From sequence record OL960577.1: a stretch of DNA of 64,000 nucleotides; one strand, written 5' to 3'. A model generated the notes under the pieces. The model was not told the origin of the DNA. It did no database searches and was given only the letters and a program-made list of their open reading frames with translations. The translations under genes and the position numbers were made by a program. The first letter of the stretch is position 1; the number at the start of each line of letters is the position of its first letter. Below, piece by piece: positions 2,520-30,183 of the stretch. This stretch comes from Escherichia phage vB_EcoM_SA35RD.

Positions 2520-3620
2520 TTACGCTGTGAAGATTTTATCCCACATCGCAACAACTGCATCTCGGTTATACTTCTTCCATACTGCTTCAGCACGTTTAAC
2601 TCGAGCTTCGTATGTGTCAGTGAATTCTAATACAGCTTTTGTGTAAAGCGCAACTACTTCTTTCTTAGGAGTAGAGGAATCAATTTCTACACGCACAGTA
2701 TCTGGGTCATATTCGAATGTCGCGTGCGGATAATCCTTAAAAACTAACTGAATCACAGGGACACCTTTAGAGATGGCTTCAATAGAACTATTCTCTACCG
2801 TACCCGTGTCAGGACACGTATTGATAAGTGCTTTAGCTGTTTTAAGACGTTCCATGATTTCACTGTGTGGAGCATCAATAATAACAGGATATTTAGCTGG
2901 TGGTGCCCATTTACTAGGACAGTATCCTGCACCATTTTCGCCTAGTGCTTTAATCGCTTCAAGAGCAACATCAGTACGACGCATTTTAGTGTCATAACGT
3001 TGTGCACTAATAATCAGATCAGTCGCCGGAAGAACTTCAGGTTTCTCATTCAAACAAATAACCGGATAATCTTCGGCTTCAAACAACGGATTTGCTCGCC
3101 AATAATCATAATCAATTTTGTCAGTCAGACCTGAAGTCATATAACAATATTTGCGTTCAAATTCACGGAAGGCTTTAGTAGGAGCATAACTCTTACCACC
3201 GTTCTTATGAATTTGAATAGTCTGGTCCCAAATTTGAACAATGCCACGAGATACCGGTTCAAATGGTGTTGCCATAAAATTCTTATGAACTTTAGAGAGA
3301 CCTGCGTCTTTAATTGCCTGAACGGTTAGTTTGGTCGGTTCCATAGTAACAACAAAATCGTATTCATGGATGCCGGCTAGTTCAACAATCTTACGAGCCA
3401 TAGTATAACTCATACCTAGACTGAATTTAGTCAGATGACCAACAGGATGATGATTAACCTTCCAGTCACCAAACGTGTCATTATCAAAGCCGATATAATC
3501 AATATCAGCACCGATGGACACAAGATATTTCAATACATTTAAATGTACTGCTTCAAGACCACCTTGTACACGTTCTGGGTTAAATGGGACTGCGCGAGAT
3601 GGGATAAACATAACTTTCAT
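2520..3620 (-). CDS. GT-B fold glycosyltransferase, candidate DNA hmC arabinosyltransferase
   Basis: 366 aa; N-terminal MKVMFIPS...GGLE and C-terminal GTVENSSIEAISKGVPVI resemble GT1/GT4 motifs; occupies the gene 60/mobA slot of T4. Confidence 0.55.
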   Translation of the reverse strand: MKVMFIPSRAVPFNPERVQGGLEAVHLNVLKYLVSIGADIDYIGFDNDTFGDWKVNHHPVGHLTKFSLGMSYTMARKIVELAGIHEYDFVVTMEPTKLTVQAIKDAGLSKVHKNFMATPFEPVSRGIVQIWDQTIQIHKNGGKSYAPTKAFREFERKYCYMTSGLTDKIDYDYWRANPLFEAEDYPVICLNEKPEVLPATDLIISAQRYDTKMRRTDVALEAIKALGENGAGYCPSKWAPPAKYPVIIDAPHSEIMERLKTAKALINTCPDTGTVENSSIEAISKGVPVIQLVFKDYPHATFEYDPDTVRVEIDSSTPKKEVVALYTKAVLEFTDTYEARVKRAEAVWKKYNRDAVVAMWDKIFTA

Positions 3621-22023: not shown

Positions 22024-22365
22024 TTAAAAGAATTTAAATTTTTTCTTGGTTCGTTCATTAAAAGCTTGTTGTACTTGCATTGTAACACATTTTTCAACGT
22101 GTGGTGCAAGTTCTGCTTTTCTGTCCTGGTCAAGAACTGCAAAGTCCATTACGATTTTACCATCAACCCAGTCTAGTTTTGTAATATAGACTATATGATG
22201 AGAACCATCTTCAAGTGTAATCAGAATCTCTTGAATGACGTTTTCCATTGCTGAACGGATAATTTTAAGAGATTCATTAAACACTCGTTCTTTGCGAATG
22301 TCTTCCCCTTCCGAAGAAGGGGATTCATCAACGATTTCTAGATTTAAATCATCGAGATTATTCAT
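22024..22365 (-). CDS. 40: gp40-like protein
   Basis: Start at MNNLDDLNLE after GGAAGA SD, 2 nt after uvsX stop; position as T4 gene 40. Confidence 0.4.
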   Translation of the reverse strand: MNNLDDLNLEIVDESPSSEGEDIRKERVFNESLKIIRSAMENVIQEILITLEDGSHHIVYITKLDWVDGKIVMDFAVLDQDRKAELAPHVEKCVTMQVQQAFNERTKKKFKFF

Positions 22366-23530
22366 CGAAATCTTCCATTTCGTCAAGGTCGTTTTCAATA
22401 TCTGCTGCAGACGGAGCATCAGAAGCTTTAACAGGAACTTTAGTTGTTGCTTTGCAATTAATAAGGTCGTTAACAGCGTCATCAACTTCTTTAATAGAAG
22501 AGATAGCACCTAGTTTATATTTAGTTTCAATTGCATCTCGGAAAGGTTTGTGTTTAAACAACGGTCCCCAGAATTCTACACAATCAGTAGCTTTAGCACG
22601 CCACGATTTCTCTTCACGAATCATTTCGCCTGTTTCTTCGTCAAGGAATTCACGAGCATACCAACCGGCTTTAGGCTTAACAACAAATCCAATTTCAGTT
22701 GCCATTTCTAACAAGCCACTGAATGGGTCGATACCACCATCAAAATTAACTGTGATTGGGAAAGTAGATTTTTCTTTAACTGTACGAGATTTTTCTGCTT
22801 TCAACGTGAAGTCATAACCGGTCAATTCTGTACCTTCTTTAACCTGACGTTTAGAGATAAAGAATACAGTGTTAGCAGAGTAAAGAATACCTGTACCACC
22901 ACCCATAATCTCTTTAGGATATAGTCCGCCGATTTCCATTGCTGTATGGTTGATTGCAACGCACGGAATATCTTTAATAGTCAGATAAGGAGTCACAATA
23001 CGGAACAGAGATTTAAGTGCCTTAGCACGAGACATATCACCTACGACTTTCTCGTTCAATGCATCTTCGGTTTCTTTCTTAGATGCAGTATTACCGATTG
23101 AATCGATAAAGATAATAACTTTATCACCGCGTTCAATAGCGTCAAGCTGATTAGTCATATCAACTTTAAGTTGTTCGACGGACTGAATTGGTGTGTGAAC
23201 TACACGGTCTAAATCAACACCCATTGAACGAAAATAAGATTCTGAAGCACCAAATTCTGAATCATAGAACAAACAAATTGCATCTTTATATTTCTTCATA
23301 TATGCTGCAACCATAGTTAGTCCAAACAACGTTTTAAAGTGTTTAGAAGGAGCAGCAAAAATAGTTAAGCCTGATTGCAACCCAGCATTCAGTGCACCAC
23401 CTAATGCAATATTCAACATCGGAATACGAGTAGGGACTTCATCACGATTATTAAACAGCTTAGACTTAGTCAAGTCTGCAGTCATTTTAGAAGTAGAAGC
23501 TTTAATCAGACGAGATTTTAAATCAGACAT
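22358..23530 (-). CDS. uvsX: UvsX recombinase (RecA-like)
   Basis: 390 aa; RecA-like core; T4 synteny. Confidence 0.85.
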   Translation of the reverse strand: MSDLKSRLIKASTSKMTADLTKSKLFNNRDEVPTRIPMLNIALGGALNAGLQSGLTIFAAPSKHFKTLFGLTMVAAYMKKYKDAICLFYDSEFGASESYFRSMGVDLDRVVHTPIQSVEQLKVDMTNQLDAIERGDKVIIFIDSIGNTASKKETEDALNEKVVGDMSRAKALKSLFRIVTPYLTIKDIPCVAINHTAMEIGGLYPKEIMGGGTGILYSANTVFFISKRQVKEGTELTGYDFTLKAEKSRTVKEKSTFPITVNFDGGIDPFSGLLEMATEIGFVVKPKAGWYAREFLDEETGEMIREEKSWRAKATDCVEFWGPLFKHKPFRDAIETKYKLGAISSIKEVDDAVNDLINCKATTKVPVKASDAPSAADIENDLDEMEDFDE

Positions 23531-23630: not shown

Positions 23631-24179
23631 TTAACGAGCCCATTTGATAATTTCTGTAATCAAATTATTACGTTCGCTTGCATTAAATCCTATAACTTTG
23701 TTAGCACCATCATGATTAAGTAATTGATACGTTTGGATTTCGTTATGAATTGCAAACTCTTCAAAATATGAAATGACTGTATTAAAACCGAATGAAGACA
23801 AAGTAATAAGGTCGTCTTCAAAACTTTCAGTCATTTCGTTACGTGTTAAAATAATTGTGAACACATCATGGTTTTGGCAAAGACGAACATAATCCTGTTC
23901 ATAAACGTCAAGAACCGAGTCCGCATCTTGTCGAATACGTCCATAAACCCAGTTACTAATATATCCACGGTCTAACAGATAAATCTTAGTAGGGTCTAAA
24001 TAATTCAACATCGTTTCGAAACAGCCAACTTCATTTCGAGACTTAACATCGAAACGTCCATCAACTGTTCGTTTAGGGAAATCAATCTTTACATATCTTT
24101 CACTAATTTCCATTATGTCATTAATGAAAGTTGTTTTACCAGCATTATCCGGGCCATCTACTAAAATAATTTTAGCCAT
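23631..24179 (-). CDS. P-loop kinase, thymidylate/dNMP kinase-like
   Basis: 182 aa; Walker A VDGPDNAGKTT and LLDRGYISNWVYG (DR-Y-like motif). Confidence 0.5.
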   Translation of the reverse strand: MAKIILVDGPDNAGKTTFINDIMEISERYVKIDFPKRTVDGRFDVKSRNEVGCFETMLNYLDPTKIYLLDRGYISNWVYGRIRQDADSVLDVYEQDYVRLCQNHDVFTIILTRNEMTESFEDDLITLSSFGFNTVISYFEEFAIHNEIQTYQLLNHDGANKVIGFNASERNNLITEIIKWAR

Positions 24180-24180
24180 T

Positions 24181-25080
24181 TTATTCCTCGATTACGACAT
24201 CTTCGTATTTAGGTATATTATACGGTGAAGAAATTAAAGCATTAAAGTAGATGAACTCACCAAGACCTGGATGGAATACTTCTTCAGGATTTTCGAAATA
24301 TTGAATCTTCGGACGTCCTTTAAGAATTTGATAGTACTCAGTTTTAGTTGGATTAAAAATTCGAATCAGCGCTTCTTCAGGATACTTATTTCTGTCGAAA
24401 CTATTATTTGGATCAGTTATATAAAGCGGTTGACCTAATTGAATTGCGCATTCAACCACTTGTTCAAAACGATAGCATGGGTCACTAATTCGAAATGGAT
24501 GAAAAATACCATCTAGATGAATAGGAGCCAAATCACCTACAAGACGCTGCATGACGGAAGGACGTATAACTTTCTGCGTTACGATAATCTTATTACCATC
24601 TGCACCTGCGTTAACCAGCACTTCTTTTTGACGTTCATTCAACACAGTAGTTTGAAGTGAACGATTAACAGACAACATGTCGGTTTTTAAGAATTCATCA
24701 ATATAAAAACGTGGTTTATTAGGGTCTGCAGTGATATTGAAATTGAATTCTACATCAAAAGCGCCGTCATATCCAGTGATATCTGTGATTAGAAAATCAC
24801 AATCATAATAAGCAATTAATGAATCAACCACAAATTCATTTTCAGACCAAAAATATTTACGAGTGTTATACGCGTTATCTTTATACCATAATGGAACAAA
24901 CTTAAATTCTGGGAAAAGACGTTCACATTCTTTAATATCAGATGCATTACGTGGATATGTAATCACATCACCCGGATTAGCACGGTGCAAATGAAGTTGG
25001 AAGTTGCCATCCTTAAGGATAGCATACTGTCCAGTTTCATAAGACCGCATACTCAAGATAGGTACGCGGAAAATAGCCAT
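24181..25080 (-). CDS. hypothetical protein in modification locus
   Basis: 299 aa ORF, no recognised motif. Confidence 0.45.
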   Translation of the reverse strand: MAIFRVPILSMRSYETGQYAILKDGNFQLHLHRANPGDVITYPRNASDIKECERLFPEFKFVPLWYKDNAYNTRKYFWSENEFVVDSLIAYYDCDFLITDITGYDGAFDVEFNFNITADPNKPRFYIDEFLKTDMLSVNRSLQTTVLNERQKEVLVNAGADGNKIIVTQKVIRPSVMQRLVGDLAPIHLDGIFHPFRISDPCYRFEQVVECAIQLGQPLYITDPNNSFDRNKYPEEALIRIFNPTKTEYYQILKGRPKIQYFENPEEVFHPGLGEFIYFNALISSPYNIPKYEDVVIEE

Positions 25081-25796
25081 TAGTCAAGGAATCCTTTAAC
25101 ATAATCAAAATCACGTTCAAACACATGGGCACTTACCATGGTATGAGTATAATCACCAACTTCTACACCACATTCGTTAGCGATATAATGAAGTAATTTT
25201 CCTTGGAGATAAAAATCCAACTGCATAACAACAGCACAGTTCTGGGAACGCATATGACAGTGGGTATAAAGCTTACCGTCACGAATATAATAAGTCACTG
25301 AGTCAGTACATGGATATTCAAGCGTTTCGTCCGAATCAAGCAAAGCCTGATCAGAACTTTCTAGAATTTGGAACACAACTCTTCGAGAGTTAGGTTTCTC
25401 TTTAAGTTCTTTTAGAAGAGCTGGTAATTGGGCCGCAATGCGAGGACCATAGAAAGTGTTGAAGTTCGCCGGCAAAGCGTCTGATTTAGGTTTAGAAATA
25501 AATTTAGCGACATTAGGATATGCCTTAAACGCTTCTTCTGCATCAGTACCACCAGAAATCATAAACTTCCAGAAGTCTTCGGCATATTCATAAGAGATGC
25601 GGTTAATACGTGGGTCGGTCATTTTGAATGATGATGGATTGTCAACAACTACTGTCATGGACCCGATTTCATTACAACGTCCAATACGAGAATCAGTTAC
25701 GAATTCAGGATTTTCTAAAATTTCACGATTGACTGCTTTAAATGCGGCTTGAAAATCTGCGGCTTTGATATATTTCATTGTGTTATGTTTTCCCAT
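25080..25796 (-). CDS. 42: dCMP hydroxymethylase gp42 (thymidylate synthase fold)
   Basis: 238 aa; EYPCTD segment and size; T4 synteny (42 upstream of 43). Confidence 0.7.
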   Translation of the reverse strand: MGKHNTMKYIKAADFQAAFKAVNREILENPEFVTDSRIGRCNEIGSMTVVVDNPSSFKMTDPRINRISYEYAEDFWKFMISGGTDAEEAFKAYPNVAKFISKPKSDALPANFNTFYGPRIAAQLPALLKELKEKPNSRRVVFQILESSDQALLDSDETLEYPCTDSVTYYIRDGKLYTHCHMRSQNCAVVMQLDFYLQGKLLHYIANECGVEVGDYTHTMVSAHVFERDFDYVKGFLD

Positions 25797-25838
25797 GTTT
25801 ACCTCAATACAATTTATTATATACTCAATTCGTAAAGC

Positions 25839-26078
25839 TTATTTGAATTTCTTGGCAATGTTGATATAACGTAAAGCTTCAGAATCTATACTTCCAAGAA
25901 CACTATGAAGGAATGCATCAGTGTAGTATTCCAATTGAACAGGTTCTTTAATCACTTTAGCCGCTTTGGTTTCAAACAGGCCCATAAGGGCCTTTTTAAG
26001 AATTTGTTCGTTAGTGTTCAGTTTTATAGTCAAAATCTCTTCATTAAGTTGGTGGTTAAAAGTTTTTCTAGAAATCAT
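25839..26078 (-). CDS. hypothetical protein
   Basis: 79 aa ORF. Confidence 0.35.
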   Translation of the reverse strand: MISRKTFNHQLNEEILTIKLNTNEQILKKALMGLFETKAAKVIKEPVQLEYYTDAFLHSVLGSIDSEALRYINIAKKFK

Positions 26079-27244
26079 TCCGGGTACCTCAAAGCGTCAT
26101 CAGAGTTAGTTATATCAATAATAGATATAGAGTTTTCTGATAACCCATTTTTAGATAACTGACGTTTATAATATCTTTCACAATATGTACACGTCGTCCC
26201 GCAGATTTCATTAGCACAATCGAAATCTGGATGTCTGAACCACCTTTTTTCTAAAAAACCGTCTAACAATGAGGTTTCAATATTTACTGTATGTGAAAAC
26301 TCAGTCTCATTTTCAAGAGTGAAAATAGTCTCTAAAGGCTTCCACAGTTCTAACAAATTACCTTCAAACTTTTCAGAAGCGTATGCTTCAAGAACTTTCA
26401 AAATGTAGTCTGTGCTACCTGTACGTCCTGAAACTTTGAATTGAGTGATACCAATATCATTATAAAGTTTCAAATCTTGAGGACGAACAAAACGAGTTCT
26501 CAACCAGTTAAATGGGTCTGTATCACGAGCTTTAATGCAGTGTTGCATTGGATACCCGTTTAAGGATTTAGCATCATCAGCTGTAACATCAGTACTATGG
26601 AAAATATAGCAAGAGTCACGATAGCTACAATGTGTTGTATACCCTTTACCAGCATTAGAACAGAACTCATTTACAAGAACTTCAAATATTATATTGTTCT
26701 TATTGCAAAACTCTGCTGCACGCTTCAGGAAAGAAACTGAACGGTTCTTATGAATTCCACAGCAGACCTTTTTGATATTGTATTGGTCATGTAAGTATTT
26801 TATTTGAGTTACAGCATCGACATGTAGAATTGTTGAAACTTCAATCTCAATGTCTTTATTGACTTCACGAACAATTTCCATAACAACAGGGTTAGCGATA
26901 GTAATACGCCATACGCCTATTGACCAAAGATACTGAACATAATCCTGAATAGCTTTCTTCTTCCACTCAACTAGTTCTCTTTTTGAACCAGGATTTATCG
27001 TGTTGAGTGTATAGTTAAAGCAAATACCTAATTCGTTACAACGTTTAACGTAATCTTCTAACATCTTTTTGTCAACGTCAGGAAGCCTAAAATCAGGTCT
27101 GGCTGCTACAAAAGCCATTTCTCTTGTAGAGCCGTATACTTCATTTATCAAGCTATTAGGATAAGTTTTATTGAGCTCTACGATTTTATCAAGAAGAGCT
27201 AAATCAAAATTCGTTCCGATTTTAAAAGTATTCATTTTTTGCAT
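26075..27244 (-). CDS. Cys-rich protein, possible Fe-S enzyme (U32-like?)
   Basis: 389 aa; Cys clusters EFCSNAGKGYTTHCSYRDSC and CANEICGTTCTYC (CxxxCxxC); family unresolved. Confidence 0.45.
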   Translation of the reverse strand: MQKMNTFKIGTNFDLALLDKIVELNKTYPNSLINEVYGSTREMAFVAARPDFRLPDVDKKMLEDYVKRCNELGICFNYTLNTINPGSKRELVEWKKKAIQDYVQYLWSIGVWRITIANPVVMEIVREVNKDIEIEVSTILHVDAVTQIKYLHDQYNIKKVCCGIHKNRSVSFLKRAAEFCNKNNIIFEVLVNEFCSNAGKGYTTHCSYRDSCYIFHSTDVTADDAKSLNGYPMQHCIKARDTDPFNWLRTRFVRPQDLKLYNDIGITQFKVSGRTGSTDYILKVLEAYASEKFEGNLLELWKPLETIFTLENETEFSHTVNIETSLLDGFLEKRWFRHPDFDCANEICGTTCTYCERYYKRQLSKNGLSENSISIIDITNSDDALRYPE

Positions 27245-27294: not shown

Positions 27295-27696
27295 TTATAG
27301 ATTCGGTTTATACGATTTAAATGTTTCGAATTCGCCTTTATTCATAAGAGCTTTGAATTCGTCAGGACGCATAGCTTTGTCGTCGATAATCCAATCATAT
27401 ACTGGTTTATGTGTTAGCAAATTATGGTACTTCAAACCAATGTTTTCCAAGTTCTGAATCAGACTTGGGAGAATGTCAATTGCTATACGACCAGGACCTA
27501 CCGACTTCATACCACGAGCAGTGTAAAGCGTTATGGTATGCCCTGCATCATACAGGGCATTAATGGCGGTCACCATTTCGACGTCTGGTTTGAAGTTCAC
27601 ATAATCACGATTGTTATTCCACTCTGTTATACAATCATCGACATCAAAACAAAGATTAAGCATGTTTTCTACACGGTGCATTAGATTCGTTCCCAT
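27295..27696 (-). CDS. HAD-superfamily phosphatase
   Basis: 133 aa; DxD motif in FDVDDCIT near N-terminus. Confidence 0.55.
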   Translation of the reverse strand: MGTNLMHRVENMLNLCFDVDDCITEWNNNRDYVNFKPDVEMVTAINALYDAGHTITLYTARGMKSVGPGRIAIDILPSLIQNLENIGLKYHNLLTHKPVYDWIIDDKAMRPDEFKALMNKGEFETFKSYKPNL

Positions 27697-29366
27697 TGAT
27701 GAGTGATATCGCCACCGATTGGACGATAGGAAACACCAGTTTCTTTATCAGTTAGTACCCATTTACCAGGATTTTTTGTAATCAGAGTAGCCGTTACAGG
27801 TTCTGCTACGTCATAACTAATAGAGCCATCTTGAAGTACACGGCCCGTGTTACGTAATTGCTTAGTCAGAAGTTCCATACCTTTATAATATGCGGCTACC
27901 GCTTTAAGTGGATTATTCTTGAAATAACCACCTAATGCAATCCAGATAATTGCTACTGCCAAATGATGATACTCGTTAAACGAACTCATCTTTCCATATT
28001 TGTAAACTAATGGATTGATGTTAATAGTCACATTACAAGTTGTTTCATCAATAATAAACTGGCCCCAGGTCGGATTAGCGTTGAATTCATCATAACCTGA
28101 AACAGCATAAAGCACTTTAGCTTCATCATACAATTTTGGTCCGTAAATCTTGGTTTCACCAAAATATCCACGAGGGTCGATAAACTTGACTTCGCCGTTA
28201 TCAGTAATCATAGTATTACTGAAGTTCGGATCACCGTGAATAACAGAGTACTGTCCCTGAGAACGGTTATGATAACGAATAAGATGTTCTAAAGCTTGTT
28301 TCAACATTGGCTTCAGACGTCCAATCTTAGTGTAGTTCACGTGTGTGATTTTACCAAATGAATCAATCAATGGCTGAATGCTTTCACAACGATCAATAAC
28401 TTTCGTATAGAACTCTTTAGTGAAATCACGGCGAACAGTTTCAGGACTTACAAAATAAGTGTCTGTGCTGAATTTCAGTGCATCTAAAATTGCATCAACA
28501 ATTTGTGGACGAGCAAGACTTGATTTGGATTTAATATATTCAAATGCCGGCTTACCTTTAATACGTTCCATTTCAAAGTTATTTTCATTAACAGAAACTA
28601 ACTGAGGGACTGAATCTGATTTCACTTTCAAATACCATGAAATCTCATCTTTCTGAAGAGCTCGACCTTGTTCGGTTAACGCGAATTTAGTTACAGTTTC
28701 TTCGCCAATTTCAACTGCATTAAAACTACGATTAAGTTCACGAACTTCATGAGCTTTTTCAAGTTTAGGCATATCGCCAAGGTCGATGATATTCATAAGC
28801 TCTGATTTATTGAATGCGCCGCTGTAAAGGAATTCTACGAAATCACGTCCTTTGCAGTATTCATGAATTTCCTCATCAGTAGAACCCATATAGAATTCCC
28901 AGTCTTTGAACTGATAAATTCCTACAACATTACCACCTGTTGAACCTACGTTAGTGATATTTTCACCGTCGAAATTATATCGACATTCGTCACCCTTAAC
29001 ATAGATTGCGTTAACATTCCAAGACCATGAACCAAAATCAGGAATAATATCACACCAGTTAACAATTACATTATGGCCGTCTAAATCTTTGTGTAATTTA
29101 GCAAGAGCATAAGCAGAACCATACGCTTCGTCAACTGTACGAATAGTCACATTGAACCCTTCTTGCTCACAATAAGCTCGAACAGTTTCAGCAAATTTTG
29201 AATGAACTACTACAATAATTTCATCTGCGCCAAGGTCAGAATAAATTGTATACAAATTGCTCAGAATAGTGTCTTGTTTATAGTTCACAAGAACTTTTGG
29301 AATATGATGCGTTATTGGATACAAACGAGTTGCCAGTCCAGCACCAAGAATAACAGCTTTTTTCAT
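27681..29366 (-). CDS. bifunctional sugar-1-phosphate nucleotidyltransferase / sugar kinase
   Basis: 561 aa; N-terminal GAGLATRLYPITHHIPK (G-x-G-T-R...PK); C-terminal HGDPNFSNTM...IDPRG (APH/choline-kinase-like). Confidence 0.6.
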   Translation of the reverse strand: MKKAVILGAGLATRLYPITHHIPKVLVNYKQDTILSNLYTIYSDLGADEIIVVVHSKFAETVRAYCEQEGFNVTIRTVDEAYGSAYALAKLHKDLDGHNVIVNWCDIIPDFGSWSWNVNAIYVKGDECRYNFDGENITNVGSTGGNVVGIYQFKDWEFYMGSTDEEIHEYCKGRDFVEFLYSGAFNKSELMNIIDLGDMPKLEKAHEVRELNRSFNAVEIGEETVTKFALTEQGRALQKDEISWYLKVKSDSVPQLVSVNENNFEMERIKGKPAFEYIKSKSSLARPQIVDAILDALKFSTDTYFVSPETVRRDFTKEFYTKVIDRCESIQPLIDSFGKITHVNYTKIGRLKPMLKQALEHLIRYHNRSQGQYSVIHGDPNFSNTMITDNGEVKFIDPRGYFGETKIYGPKLYDEAKVLYAVSGYDEFNANPTWGQFIIDETTCNVTININPLVYKYGKMSSFNEYHHLAVAIIWIALGGYFKNNPLKAVAAYYKGMELLTKQLRNTGRVLQDGSISYDVAEPVTATLITKNPGKWVLTDKETGVSYRPIGGDITHQWERI

Positions 29367-29407: not shown

Positions 29408-29551
29408 CTAGTTAAAGCATTCATACTTTGCCTGTAGACCAATCATAATCCATCCAATTACAAGTGTTGGAATCATTACTGGAGCCGTTAAGCTCCAGTA
29501 GATAGTCATGACAAGCATTAATAGTAAAAGTCCTATTGTTATTGCTTTCAT
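29408..29551 (-). CDS. small hydrophobic peptide translationally coupled to isomerase gene
   Basis: Hand translation MKAITIGLLLLMLVMTIYWSLTAPVMIPTLVIGWIMIGLQAKYECFN; ATGA overlap with upstream stop. Confidence 0.3.
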   Translation of the reverse strand: MKAITIGLLLLMLVMTIYWSLTAPVMIPTLVIGWIMIGLQAKYECFN

Positions 29552-30183
29552 TGTTCGCCTCGTAACATGGCACCTAGTGCACCACCAGGGTGGAACTTAA
29601 GGAAGTCATTAGAGGTAAATCCGCGTTCAGACGAAAGGTTGATAGCAAACGTATCGATAAGCGCTAACAACAATGTGGTGGACATTGTCGGAGCTAAAGA
29701 GTTCTCGTCAACTTCTACCGCGATACCGGTACAGAACGTATAATCAAAAAGAGCTTCGTATTCTTGTGGAATGTCAGGGTTACAATGTAACAGAATCTGT
29801 TTAACCTGAGGACGAATCATACGAAGATGTTTAGCAACACCTATCATTTCTTCAGTCTTACCAGAACGACTAATATGAATCAACACATCATTAGGCGCAA
29901 TGAATCCTGCATCACCGTGAGAATAATGCCCGGTGTTCAAGTACATACTCGGGATACCGAGTGAAGCAAATGTCTCAGAAGCTTTAGTTGCAATATTAGC
30001 ATTCTTACCAACACCTGTAATAATTACTCGGCTTTCATAATTACTAAGTCCTGGGCGTCGAAGAGTTTCTAGAATAGCATTATAACGAGCAGGGTTTTGA
30101 CTAATTACTTTGGCCATAGCGGCCAAAGAAGAAGCTTGTTTTATGATTGCGTCAATAGCGATAGTAATAGGAGTAGTTTTCAT
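29548..30183 (-). CDS. SIS-domain sugar-phosphate isomerase, arabinose-5-phosphate isomerase-like
   Basis: 211 aa; GVGKNANIATKASETFASLGIPS...SHGD resembles KdsD/GutQ SIS domain. Confidence 0.6.
   Translation of the reverse strand: MKTTPITIAIDAIIKQASSLAAMAKVISQNPARYNAILETLRRPGLSNYESRVIITGVGKNANIATKASETFASLGIPSMYLNTGHYSHGDAGFIAPNDVLIHISRSGKTEEMIGVAKHLRMIRPQVKQILLHCNPDIPQEYEALFDYTFCTGIAVEVDENSLAPTMSTTLLLALIDTFAINLSSERGFTSNDFLKFHPGGALGAMLRGEQ

Follow-up and report, generated by a model that had tools for sequence, protein, structure and literature searches.

Genes between the 5-hydroxy-dCMP synthase gene and uvsX

The window analyzed here is the whole 64,000-nucleotide stretch of Escherichia phage vB_EcoM_SA35RD (OL960577.1), a Mosigvirus (RB69-like T-even phage) that is 99% identical to sequenced isolates; 2.5 kb of the region considered below are 99.1% identical to the Escherichia phages LF82-1, JS09, and ATK47 of the RB69 group (Mosigvirus). 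We focus on two adjoining genes, encoding a 182-amino-acid (aa) P-loop kinase and a 299-aa glycosyltransferase, which together occupy positions 23631-25080 on the minus strand (Table 1). The original prediction for this locus had delimited both open reading frames (ORFs), each of which starts with ATG, exactly, and the two kinase motifs to which it drew attention are found in the ORF as IILVDGPDNAGKTTF and IYLLDRGYISNW (VDGPDNAGKTT and LLDRGYIS).

The two genes are the second and third members of a tightly packed three-gene unit, synthase, glycosyltransferase, and kinase, within the arabinosyl-5-hydroxycytosine cluster, whose genes serve RB69-like phages to substitute this modified base for cytosine. 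The 299-aa ORF starts at the last base of the synthase stop codon (TAATG overlap), and a single nucleotide separates its own stop from the kinase ATG, with GAGGAA contained in the two final codons of the glycosyltransferase gene. A terminator-like hairpin with a T-run over the kinase stop codon probably marks the end of the unit, ahead of uvsX. A candidate middle promoter, matched to the T4 middle promoter consensus, lies upstream of the synthase gene. The structure of the unit is read from the gene overlap and this one hairpin, not from promoter and terminator counts: neither sigma-70 promoter matches (26 versus 27.6) nor terminator-like sites (4 versus 4.2) in the region exceed those in shuffled sequences.

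Table 1. Features of the three-gene unit and related genes, with positions in the window.
Feature	Position	Strand	Identification
366-aa GT4 glycosyltransferase (RB69 gp3 type), predicted second arabinosyltransferase	2520..3620	-	PDB 9iqz/9ir0 'phage HY126 glycosyltransferase', full length, E 2.8e-249
uvsX, downstream of the kinase	22358-23530
Terminator-like hairpin with T-run, over the kinase stop codon	23621..23645	-	10-bp stem, tail AAAGTTTTTA; consensus match only
182-aa divergent thymidylate-kinase-fold P-loop kinase	23631..24179	-	ATG ORF; orthologue of RB69 gp45
299-aa compact GT-B glycosyltransferase	24181..25080	-	ATG ORF; orthologue of RB69 gp46:47; predicted base-proximal (first) arabinosyltransferase on 5-hydroxycytosine
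238-aa thymidylate-synthase homologue (flavin-dependent 5-hydroxy-dCMP synthase), first gene of the unit	25080..25796	-	PDB 9iqc/9ir2 match
Candidate middle promoter of the T4 type, preceding the synthase gene	25816..25839	-	AGCTTTA (MotA-box-like), 11 nt, TATAAT; read from sequence
79-aa ORF between the U32 and synthase genes	25839-26078	-	PHROG 8601, no assigned function
389-aa peptidase-U32-family protein (RB69 gp50), two genes upstream, pathway neighbor and candidate O2-independent hydroxylase	26075..27244	-	Pfam PF01136, 7.4e-11
133-aa HAD-type phosphatase (RB69 gp51, AfhF-like)	27295..27696	-	orthology; role per PMC13326640
561-aa nucleotidyltransferase and APH-type kinase (RB69 gp52:53, AfhE-like), UDP-arabinofuranose	27681..29366	-	Pfam NTP_transferase 8.4e-10, weak APH/fructosamine-kinase; PMC13326640
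211-aa ORF (RB69 gp55 orthologue)	29548..30183	-	position-based: syntenic with the ATK47 gene annotated 'arabinose 5-phosphate isomerase'

The gene order in T4 is 42, beta-gt, segA, and uvsX. In the window, it is the 299-aa gene that holds the beta-gt position; the kinase, which had originally been assigned to it, stands one gene further, at the position of segA. The neighbor regarded as gene 42 also requires a different function. The 238-aa protein matches PDB 9iqc/9ir2 over its full length (E 2.4e-161) and is, as judged from this match, a flavin-dependent 5-hydroxy-dCMP synthase, not a dCMP hydroxymethylase. Its RB69 orthologue, gp48, has been shown to be a flavin-binding 5-hydroxy-dCMP synthase (Lee et al., NAR 2026, PMC13326640), and the same work shows that, in RB69 DNA, arabinose is attached to 5-hydroxycytosine through an ether link, in mono- and di-arabinosylated forms, and that the base is not arabinosyl-hydroxymethylcytosine. 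Since the neighbor makes 5-hydroxy-dCMP, this is the nucleotide relevant to the pair, rather than hydroxymethyl-dCMP, which had been put forward as a substrate to assay. GenBank labels for the gene vary between thymidylate synthase and dCMP hydroxymethylase.

Both proteins of interest are orthologues of RB69 and DLP3 proteins (gp45 and gp78 for the kinase, gp46:47 and gp79 for the glycosyltransferase; PMC13326640). The kinase is 98.9% identical to RB69 gp45 and the glycosyltransferase 98.7% identical to RB69 ORF046c+047c, and the window, ATK47, and RB69 share the same gene order between the 5-hydroxy-dCMP synthase gene and uvsX. With 27 cluster matches for the kinase (E 2e-116 to 5e-35), at least 138 for the 299-aa protein, and phage records found by tblastn for both (342 and 347, respectively), the two ORFs are real conserved genes rather than chance ORFs. 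In the window, the glycosyltransferase gene is one intact ORF, in contrast to the RB69 reference (NC_004928, 24600-25497), in which it is split into ORF046c and ORF047c; Lee et al. treat gp46:47 as one protein, 'arabinosyltransferase 1', a prediction from structure prediction and synteny (PMC13326640). The ATK47 RefSeq record (NC_055708; L001, 6779-7678) has no annotated coding sequence for it. Both genes have thus already been catalogued with predicted functions, in 2026 (PMC13326640); what is added here is the linkage of glycosyltransferase and kinase as a near-universal module.

Folds of the two proteins and their linkage across phages

The 299-aa protein had been described as an unknown with no recognizable motif, and in sequence searches of Pfam, NCBIfam, and PDB it indeed finds no match. 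No glycosyltransferase family of Pfam, including Glycos_transf_1 and Glyco_trans_4, is matched by any of 34 members of its family at E ≤ 0.01, and PHROG 3891, to which it belongs, has no assigned function. Its fold is nevertheless recognizable: two Rossmann-like domains, with structural matches that identify a GT-B protein; the structural matches of both window proteins are those given by Lee et al. (PMC13326640). We conclude that the 299-aa protein is a GT-B glycosyltransferase and the actual equivalent of T4 beta-gt in both position and function. The two enzymes share their genomic position without being related in sequence (hhalign probability, 0.3%); compared with T4 beta-gt (GT63), the window protein is 50 residues shorter and acidic instead of basic. 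In contrast to both T4 beta-gt and alpha-GT, its predicted sugar is arabinofuranose and its predicted acceptor a ring hydroxyl rather than a hydroxymethyl group. By hhalign, its family is likewise unrelated to the gp3-type GT4 enzyme of the window.

The hallmark of the family is an invariant N-terminal SMRS...Y...KDGN motif, and the C-terminal domain conserves FPFR.SD, TDPN, K246, and HPG. Sequence conservation suggests R197 and K246, both invariant, and E275 (mostly Glu, with Asp in a few members) as candidate nucleotide-sugar residues of this domain. In one locus (L049, 5452-7104), a GT299-family domain is apparently fused to an HAD-like N-terminal domain in a 551-aa protein.

For the kinase, a resemblance to dTMP kinases had been proposed, with a profile search and a comparison of predicted structures named as checks. 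The latter bears the proposal out: the closest folds to the predicted structure (pLDDT 86.3) are those of thymidylate kinases (TMPKs), within the nucleoside monophosphate (NMP) kinase fold; PPK2, NadR-type kinases, and deoxynucleoside kinases rank below, and viral TMPKs are among the matches in BFVD. The former gave a divided answer. Aligned by hhalign, the kinase family matches E. coli Tmk over residues 2-81 (E 2.5e-5), pairing VDGPDNAGKTT with IEGLEGAGKTT, FPKRT with FTREP, and DRGYISNWVY with DRHDLSTQAY. Against the curated TMPK profiles, in contrast, the window protein has no PF02223 match at E ≤ 1 and scores 15.6 bits with TIGR00041, for which the cut-off is 83.25; searches of Pfam, NCBIfam, and PDB sequences returned nothing significant. 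Weak PF02223 matches occur in 7 of 16 family members (best, 2e-4), and the homologue in Shewanella phage Thanatos reaches 24.3 bits, against a GA value of 27. With the family profile, PDB matches are confined to the P-loop level, TMPKs appearing at E 0.01-0.08. The kinase is thus thymidylate-kinase-like at the level of its fold and N-terminal motifs, and lies outside the curated family.

Within its family, D11, K15, D70, R71, S75, and Y79 are invariant. The P-loop and DR motif follow the TMPK pattern, although DR is followed by Gly instead of Y, H, or F. In TMPKs, the acidic P-loop residue binds the 3'-OH of deoxyribose. At the P-loop position where TMPKs have Arg or Gly, the window kinase has Asn12. 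Beyond residue 81, where the TMPK alignment ends, R113 of the LID region is invariant, and the C-terminal half carries an invariant family-specific F-x-DDLI...FN motif with no alignable TMPK counterpart. The kinases of RB69, DLP3, and RL38J1 are listed by Lee et al. as 'nucleotide kinase', a prediction presented without discussion of a role (PMC13326640).

Also setting the window kinase apart from Tmk is its strict linkage to the glycosyltransferase, as opposed to general dTTP supply. The genus breakdowns of the kinase and glycosyltransferase records found by tblastn are nearly identical. We scanned 58 IMG/VR loci around glycosyltransferase homologues and 3 metagenome loci with family hidden Markov models (HMMs), and then again with a kinase HMM broadened by the matches of an exhaustive search. 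Fifty-nine loci contain a glycosyltransferase-family gene, 2 of which end at that gene and cannot be judged, leaving 57 testable loci; many of these are related, so they do not represent 57 independent events. A kinase-family ORF is present in 55 of the 57 and abuts or overlaps the glycosyltransferase gene in 43 of these 55, the loci without a detectable kinase being that of the HAD fusion (L049) and L051.

The module spans T4-like phages of enterobacteria and Acinetobacter, is kept in Thanatos, and occurs in phages with PolA- or PolIII-type replicases. In Rhizobium phage RL38J1, which glycosylates 5-hydroxycytosine with hexoses (PMC13326640), genes 216, 215, and 214 encode, in this order, a ThyA homologue, a glycosyltransferase (99.2% by hhalign against the family), and the kinase; the phage also has a separate gp1-type dNMP kinase. 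Contigs with 38% identity (L029-L042 and L047) keep the pair, with no gene for arabinose activation within 6 kb. Some T4-like groups have the kinase gene on the other side of the synthase gene, still within the cluster. Upstream of the synthase gene, these relocated kinases (L004-L006, L010-L014, L019, L024, and L025) are flanked by the HAD phosphatase on one side and by the U32 or ThyA homologue on the other, and they are approximately 37-41% identical to the window kinase, compared with 67-69% for their glycosyltransferases. Collectively, the glycosyltransferase and the kinase form a near-universal two-gene module, in which the kinase is tied to the glycosyltransferase and a hydroxylated base, not to arabinose.

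Predicted substrates of the glycosyltransferase and the kinase

From the observed folds, motifs, orthology, and linkage of the two genes, we infer the sugar donor, the acceptor, the kinase substrate, and the timing of the first sugar. The reading that we favor with moderate confidence is that the glycosyltransferase adds the first arabinofuranose and that its partner kinase phosphorylates a 5-substituted dCMP, possibly in glycosylated form. The glycosyltransferase would transfer the first (alpha) arabinofuranose from UDP-arabinofuranose to the 5-hydroxyl of 5-hydroxycytosine, and the kinase, its obligate partner, would convert the 5-substituted dCMP to the diphosphate in an ATP-dependent reaction. 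The substrate of the latter would be 5-hydroxy-dCMP, the arabinosylated product, or both, and the modified nucleotide would thereby reach the polymerase. Phosphorylation of a modified nucleotide, one of the two activities originally envisaged for the kinase, is our best guess as to its substrate.

A role at the nucleotide level is favored by the NMP-site motifs that the kinase has retained. It is also favored by the behavior of purified DLP3 glycosyltransferases, which, when tested singly, gave no arabinosylation of 5-hydroxycytosine-containing DNA in vitro, gp79, the counterpart of the 299-aa protein, included (PMC13326640); Lee et al. leave open whether the first sugar goes onto the mononucleotide or onto DNA. 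The isoelectric points are consistent with such a role. The medians of the glycosyltransferase and kinase families (5.1 and 5.0) resemble the values for the synthase (5.57) and E. coli Tmk (5.33), in contrast to those for T4 beta-gt (9.05) and the DNA kinase M6 gp54 (8.66), a weak line of evidence given that the gp3-type glycosyltransferase, which presumably acts on DNA, is near neutral (6.33).

Several observations weigh against this reading. We found no enzyme assay of either protein in the accessible literature. The T4 gp1-type dNMP kinase of RB69, gp159, is a phage kinase for modified dCMP that converts 5-hydroxy-dCMP to 5-hydroxy-dCDP, and gp48 together with gp159 is enough to place 5-hydroxy-dC into E. 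coli DNA (PMC13326640), so that a second kinase dedicated to plain 5-hydroxy-dCMP would look redundant. Members of the kinase family are fused to an MBD4-like glycosylase or a UDG domain, which points to DNA; the kinase is kept in loci where a U32 protein stands in for the ThyA homologue; its sequence similarity to TMPKs is limited to the N-terminal 80 residues; and hhalign scores M6 gp54 about equal to Tmk. Finally, synthesis of UDP-xylose from xylose-1-phosphate and UTP has been reported for the Thanatos homologue of the 299-aa protein.

The redundancy would be lifted if the first sugar were added before replication. As the gp1-type kinase already handles 5-hydroxy-dCMP, the most economical role of a second, glycosyltransferase-linked kinase would be the phosphorylation of arabinosyl-5-hydroxy-dCMP. 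In this pre-replicative route, to which we give tentative credence, the glycosyltransferase would arabinosylate free 5-hydroxy-dCMP, and the TMPK-like kinase would handle the bulky sugar-bearing dNMP, beyond the reach of the gp1-type enzyme; the first sugar would enter DNA via the polymerase, with only later sugars being added on DNA. Such a route would explain the near-obligate linkage of the two genes across unrelated phages and sugars, the presence of a second kinase, and the failure of the first-step glycosyltransferase on 5-hydroxycytosine-containing DNA.

Among the alternatives, the best surviving, which we consider rather unlikely, is that the kinase acts on the DNA polymer in the manner of the 5-hmU DNA kinases (5-HMUDKs) of thymidine hypermodification, phosphorylating either a 5-hydroxy(methyl)pyrimidine in the flipped-out state or its sugar, with the glycosyltransferase acting on DNA as well. 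Like the window kinase, the 5-HMUDK M6 gp54 is a small P-loop kinase of a phage whose gene neighbors those of base-modifying transferases, and the two families align by hhalign with a probability of 84% and an E of 7.9e-6. The similarity is restricted to the P-loop region, and M6 gp54, which is basic, has none of the NMP-site motifs that the window kinase shares with TMPKs (the acidic residue of the P-loop, FPKR, and DR..S..Y); both window proteins are acidic. The fusions also suggest DNA. An exhaustive search with the kinase profile (315 cluster representatives at E ≤ 1e-3) revealed seven fused kinases of 314-357 aa (P0178, P0180, P0185, P0187, P0190, P0195, and P0196; E 5e-19 to 1e-9), which keep the family motifs and carry an additional C-terminal domain of ~150 aa, and an eighth protein, P0269, that combines the kinase with a UDG-superfamily domain. 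The C-terminal domain reaches the Pfam HhH-GPD threshold in P0178, where it matches MBD4 structures in PDB (E 1e-9), and remains below it in P0180. In a metagenome locus (L069, 70-2138), the MBD4-like fused gene and the start of a divergent gene of the GT299-like kind overlap. The arrangement recalls the pairing of 5-HMUDK with the HhH-fold aGPT-Pplase, and no ORF of the window encodes an HhH protein adjoining the kinase. For the genomic context of the kinase-glycosylase fusions, IMG/VR yielded no locus and the metagenome scan only three. Joining of the kinase to base-flipping DNA domains, together with the M6 gp54 score, is why we retain a DNA-level role as a rival, and the persistence of the kinase where the U32 protein replaces the nucleotide-level ThyA homologue would fit it as well. 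Speaking against it, RB69 virion DNA, as described in PMC13326640, contains ether-linked arabinose and no phosphate, and a phosphorylated 5-hydroxyl presumably could not serve as a glycosyl acceptor.

We regard as improbable that the 299-aa protein is a UDP-pentose pyrophosphorylase, making the activated sugar instead of transferring it onto cytosine. This possibility comes from Thanatos, in which TH1_063 and TH1_064 are 48% and 44% identical homologues of the glycosyltransferase and the kinase, encoded in the same order after a ThyA homologue. TH1_063 formed UDP-xylose from UTP and xylose-1-phosphate in vitro, did not modify DNA, dCMP, or dCTP, and was interpreted as a UDP-xylose pyrophosphorylase; TH1_064 was not discussed there. 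The acceptors tried lacked a 5-hydroxyl, however, and the fold of the 299-aa protein is GT-B, not that of a nucleotidyltransferase. Moreover, the cluster already has a true NTP-transferase domain, reported to make UDP-arabinose in HY126 (PMC13326640), and the glycosyltransferase family also occurs without nearby sugar-activation genes, always beside a base hydroxylase and the kinase. The Thanatos report suggests at least that the protein binds a UDP-pentose.

That the kinase is an ordinary dTMP kinase supplying dTTP for an AT-rich phage genome is still harder to credit. RefSeq and PHROG name it 'thymidylate kinase', in line with its fold, but it falls far short of the curated profiles, as detailed above, and the hhalign alignment leaves the phage family without a counterpart of YAARVQLV, the Tmk stretch that follows the aligned Phe. 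This stretch is presumably the region of the thymine-contacting Arg of E. coli Tmk. The host has its own Tmk, RB69, DLP3, and RL38J1 carry a gp1-type dNMP kinase (none was located in the window), and the kinase gene is found almost exclusively where the GT299 family is also present. Least credible is a kinase of arabinose or arabinose phosphate, the original alternative of a sugar intermediate, which fits the location within an arabinosylation cluster and which we rejected on comparative grounds: the motifs are of the nucleotide-kinase type, the pair is kept in the hexose-using RL38J1 and in contigs without nearby HAD or nucleotidyltransferase-kinase genes, and the conversion of arabinose-5-phosphate to arabinose-1,5-bisphosphate is assigned to the 561-aa protein, in which the C-terminal, APH-type domain is the kinase responsible (He et al., cited in PMC13326640). 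Persistence of the pair with other sugars or without arabinose genes thus removes a sugar kinase from consideration and makes a generic dTMP kinase unlikely.

The U32 protein and the significance of the module

Upstream of the synthase gene, the window encodes further proteins of the pathway (Table 1), among which the U32 protein stands out. Its family profile aligns with that of E. coli RlhA (hhalign E 2.2e-4), bringing together THCSYRDSCY and ALCVAYSGQCY, with Cys residues in register, as well as a GR motif. The similarity is confined to the profile level: phmmer comparison of the protein with E. coli RlhA, TrhP, UbiU, and UbiV found nothing, and there is no PDB sequence match. In the E. coli genome record, members of the U32 family are annotated as enzymes of hydroxylation: rlhA is the 23S rRNA 5-hydroxycytidine C2501 synthase gene, trhP encodes a tRNA wobble-base hydroxylation protein, and ubiU and ubiV encode ubiquinone biosynthesis proteins. 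UbiU and UbiV act anaerobically. Three Cys residues of the phage protein align with cysteines that are Fe-S ligands in UbiU.

Three loci have the order kinase, glycosyltransferase, and U32 with no ThyA homologue within 6 kb (U32 at 6954-8048 in L048, 5792-6862 in L050, and 6885-7970 in L054). In L052, a U32 gene is paired with the glycosyltransferase, again with no ThyA homologue within 6 kb, and in L057 it lies near the glycosyltransferase and an adjoining weak ThyA-like ORF (E 3e-5). These sequence relationships make the U32 protein a candidate C5 hydroxylase of pyrimidines that works independently of O2 and could complement or replace the O2-dependent flavin enzyme; such an activity would suit phages of the gut. 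The name 'sugar or heterocycle reductase' was given to it by Lee et al., who draw no link to hydroxylation (PMC13326640), and we found nothing in the searchable literature that combines U32, arabinosyl, and phage.

Toward its C-terminal end, the U32 protein has a C-x4-C-x3-C-x2-C cluster (Cys 343, 348, 352, and 355, within residues 343-355), which is conserved in phage U32 homologues and absent from the aligned E. coli U32 proteins; it may form a second metal site. RefSeq (ATK47) names the U32 protein 'peptidase' and the HAD phosphatase 'phosphoheptose isomerase'. Conservation of the 79-aa ORF is limited to a subset of related clusters (L002, L008, and L015-L017).

With arabinosylated 5-hydroxycytosine in their DNA, these phages are protected against restriction enzymes, certain CRISPR-Cas types, and the DNA glycosylase Brig1, and many of them are candidates for phage therapy directed at E. 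coli, Klebsiella, and Acinetobacter. The accessible literature has elucidated the pathway as far as the hydroxylase and the sugar donor are concerned, not for the first-sugar step or the conserved kinase. Our results show that this kinase accompanies the glycosyltransferase whatever the sugar or the type of hydroxylase, which narrows its candidate substrates to a few. Should the first sugar indeed be placed on the nucleotide, this would represent the first glycosylated dNTP used in the synthesis of a phage genome, and the two proteins would provide enzymes for making sugar-modified nucleotides.

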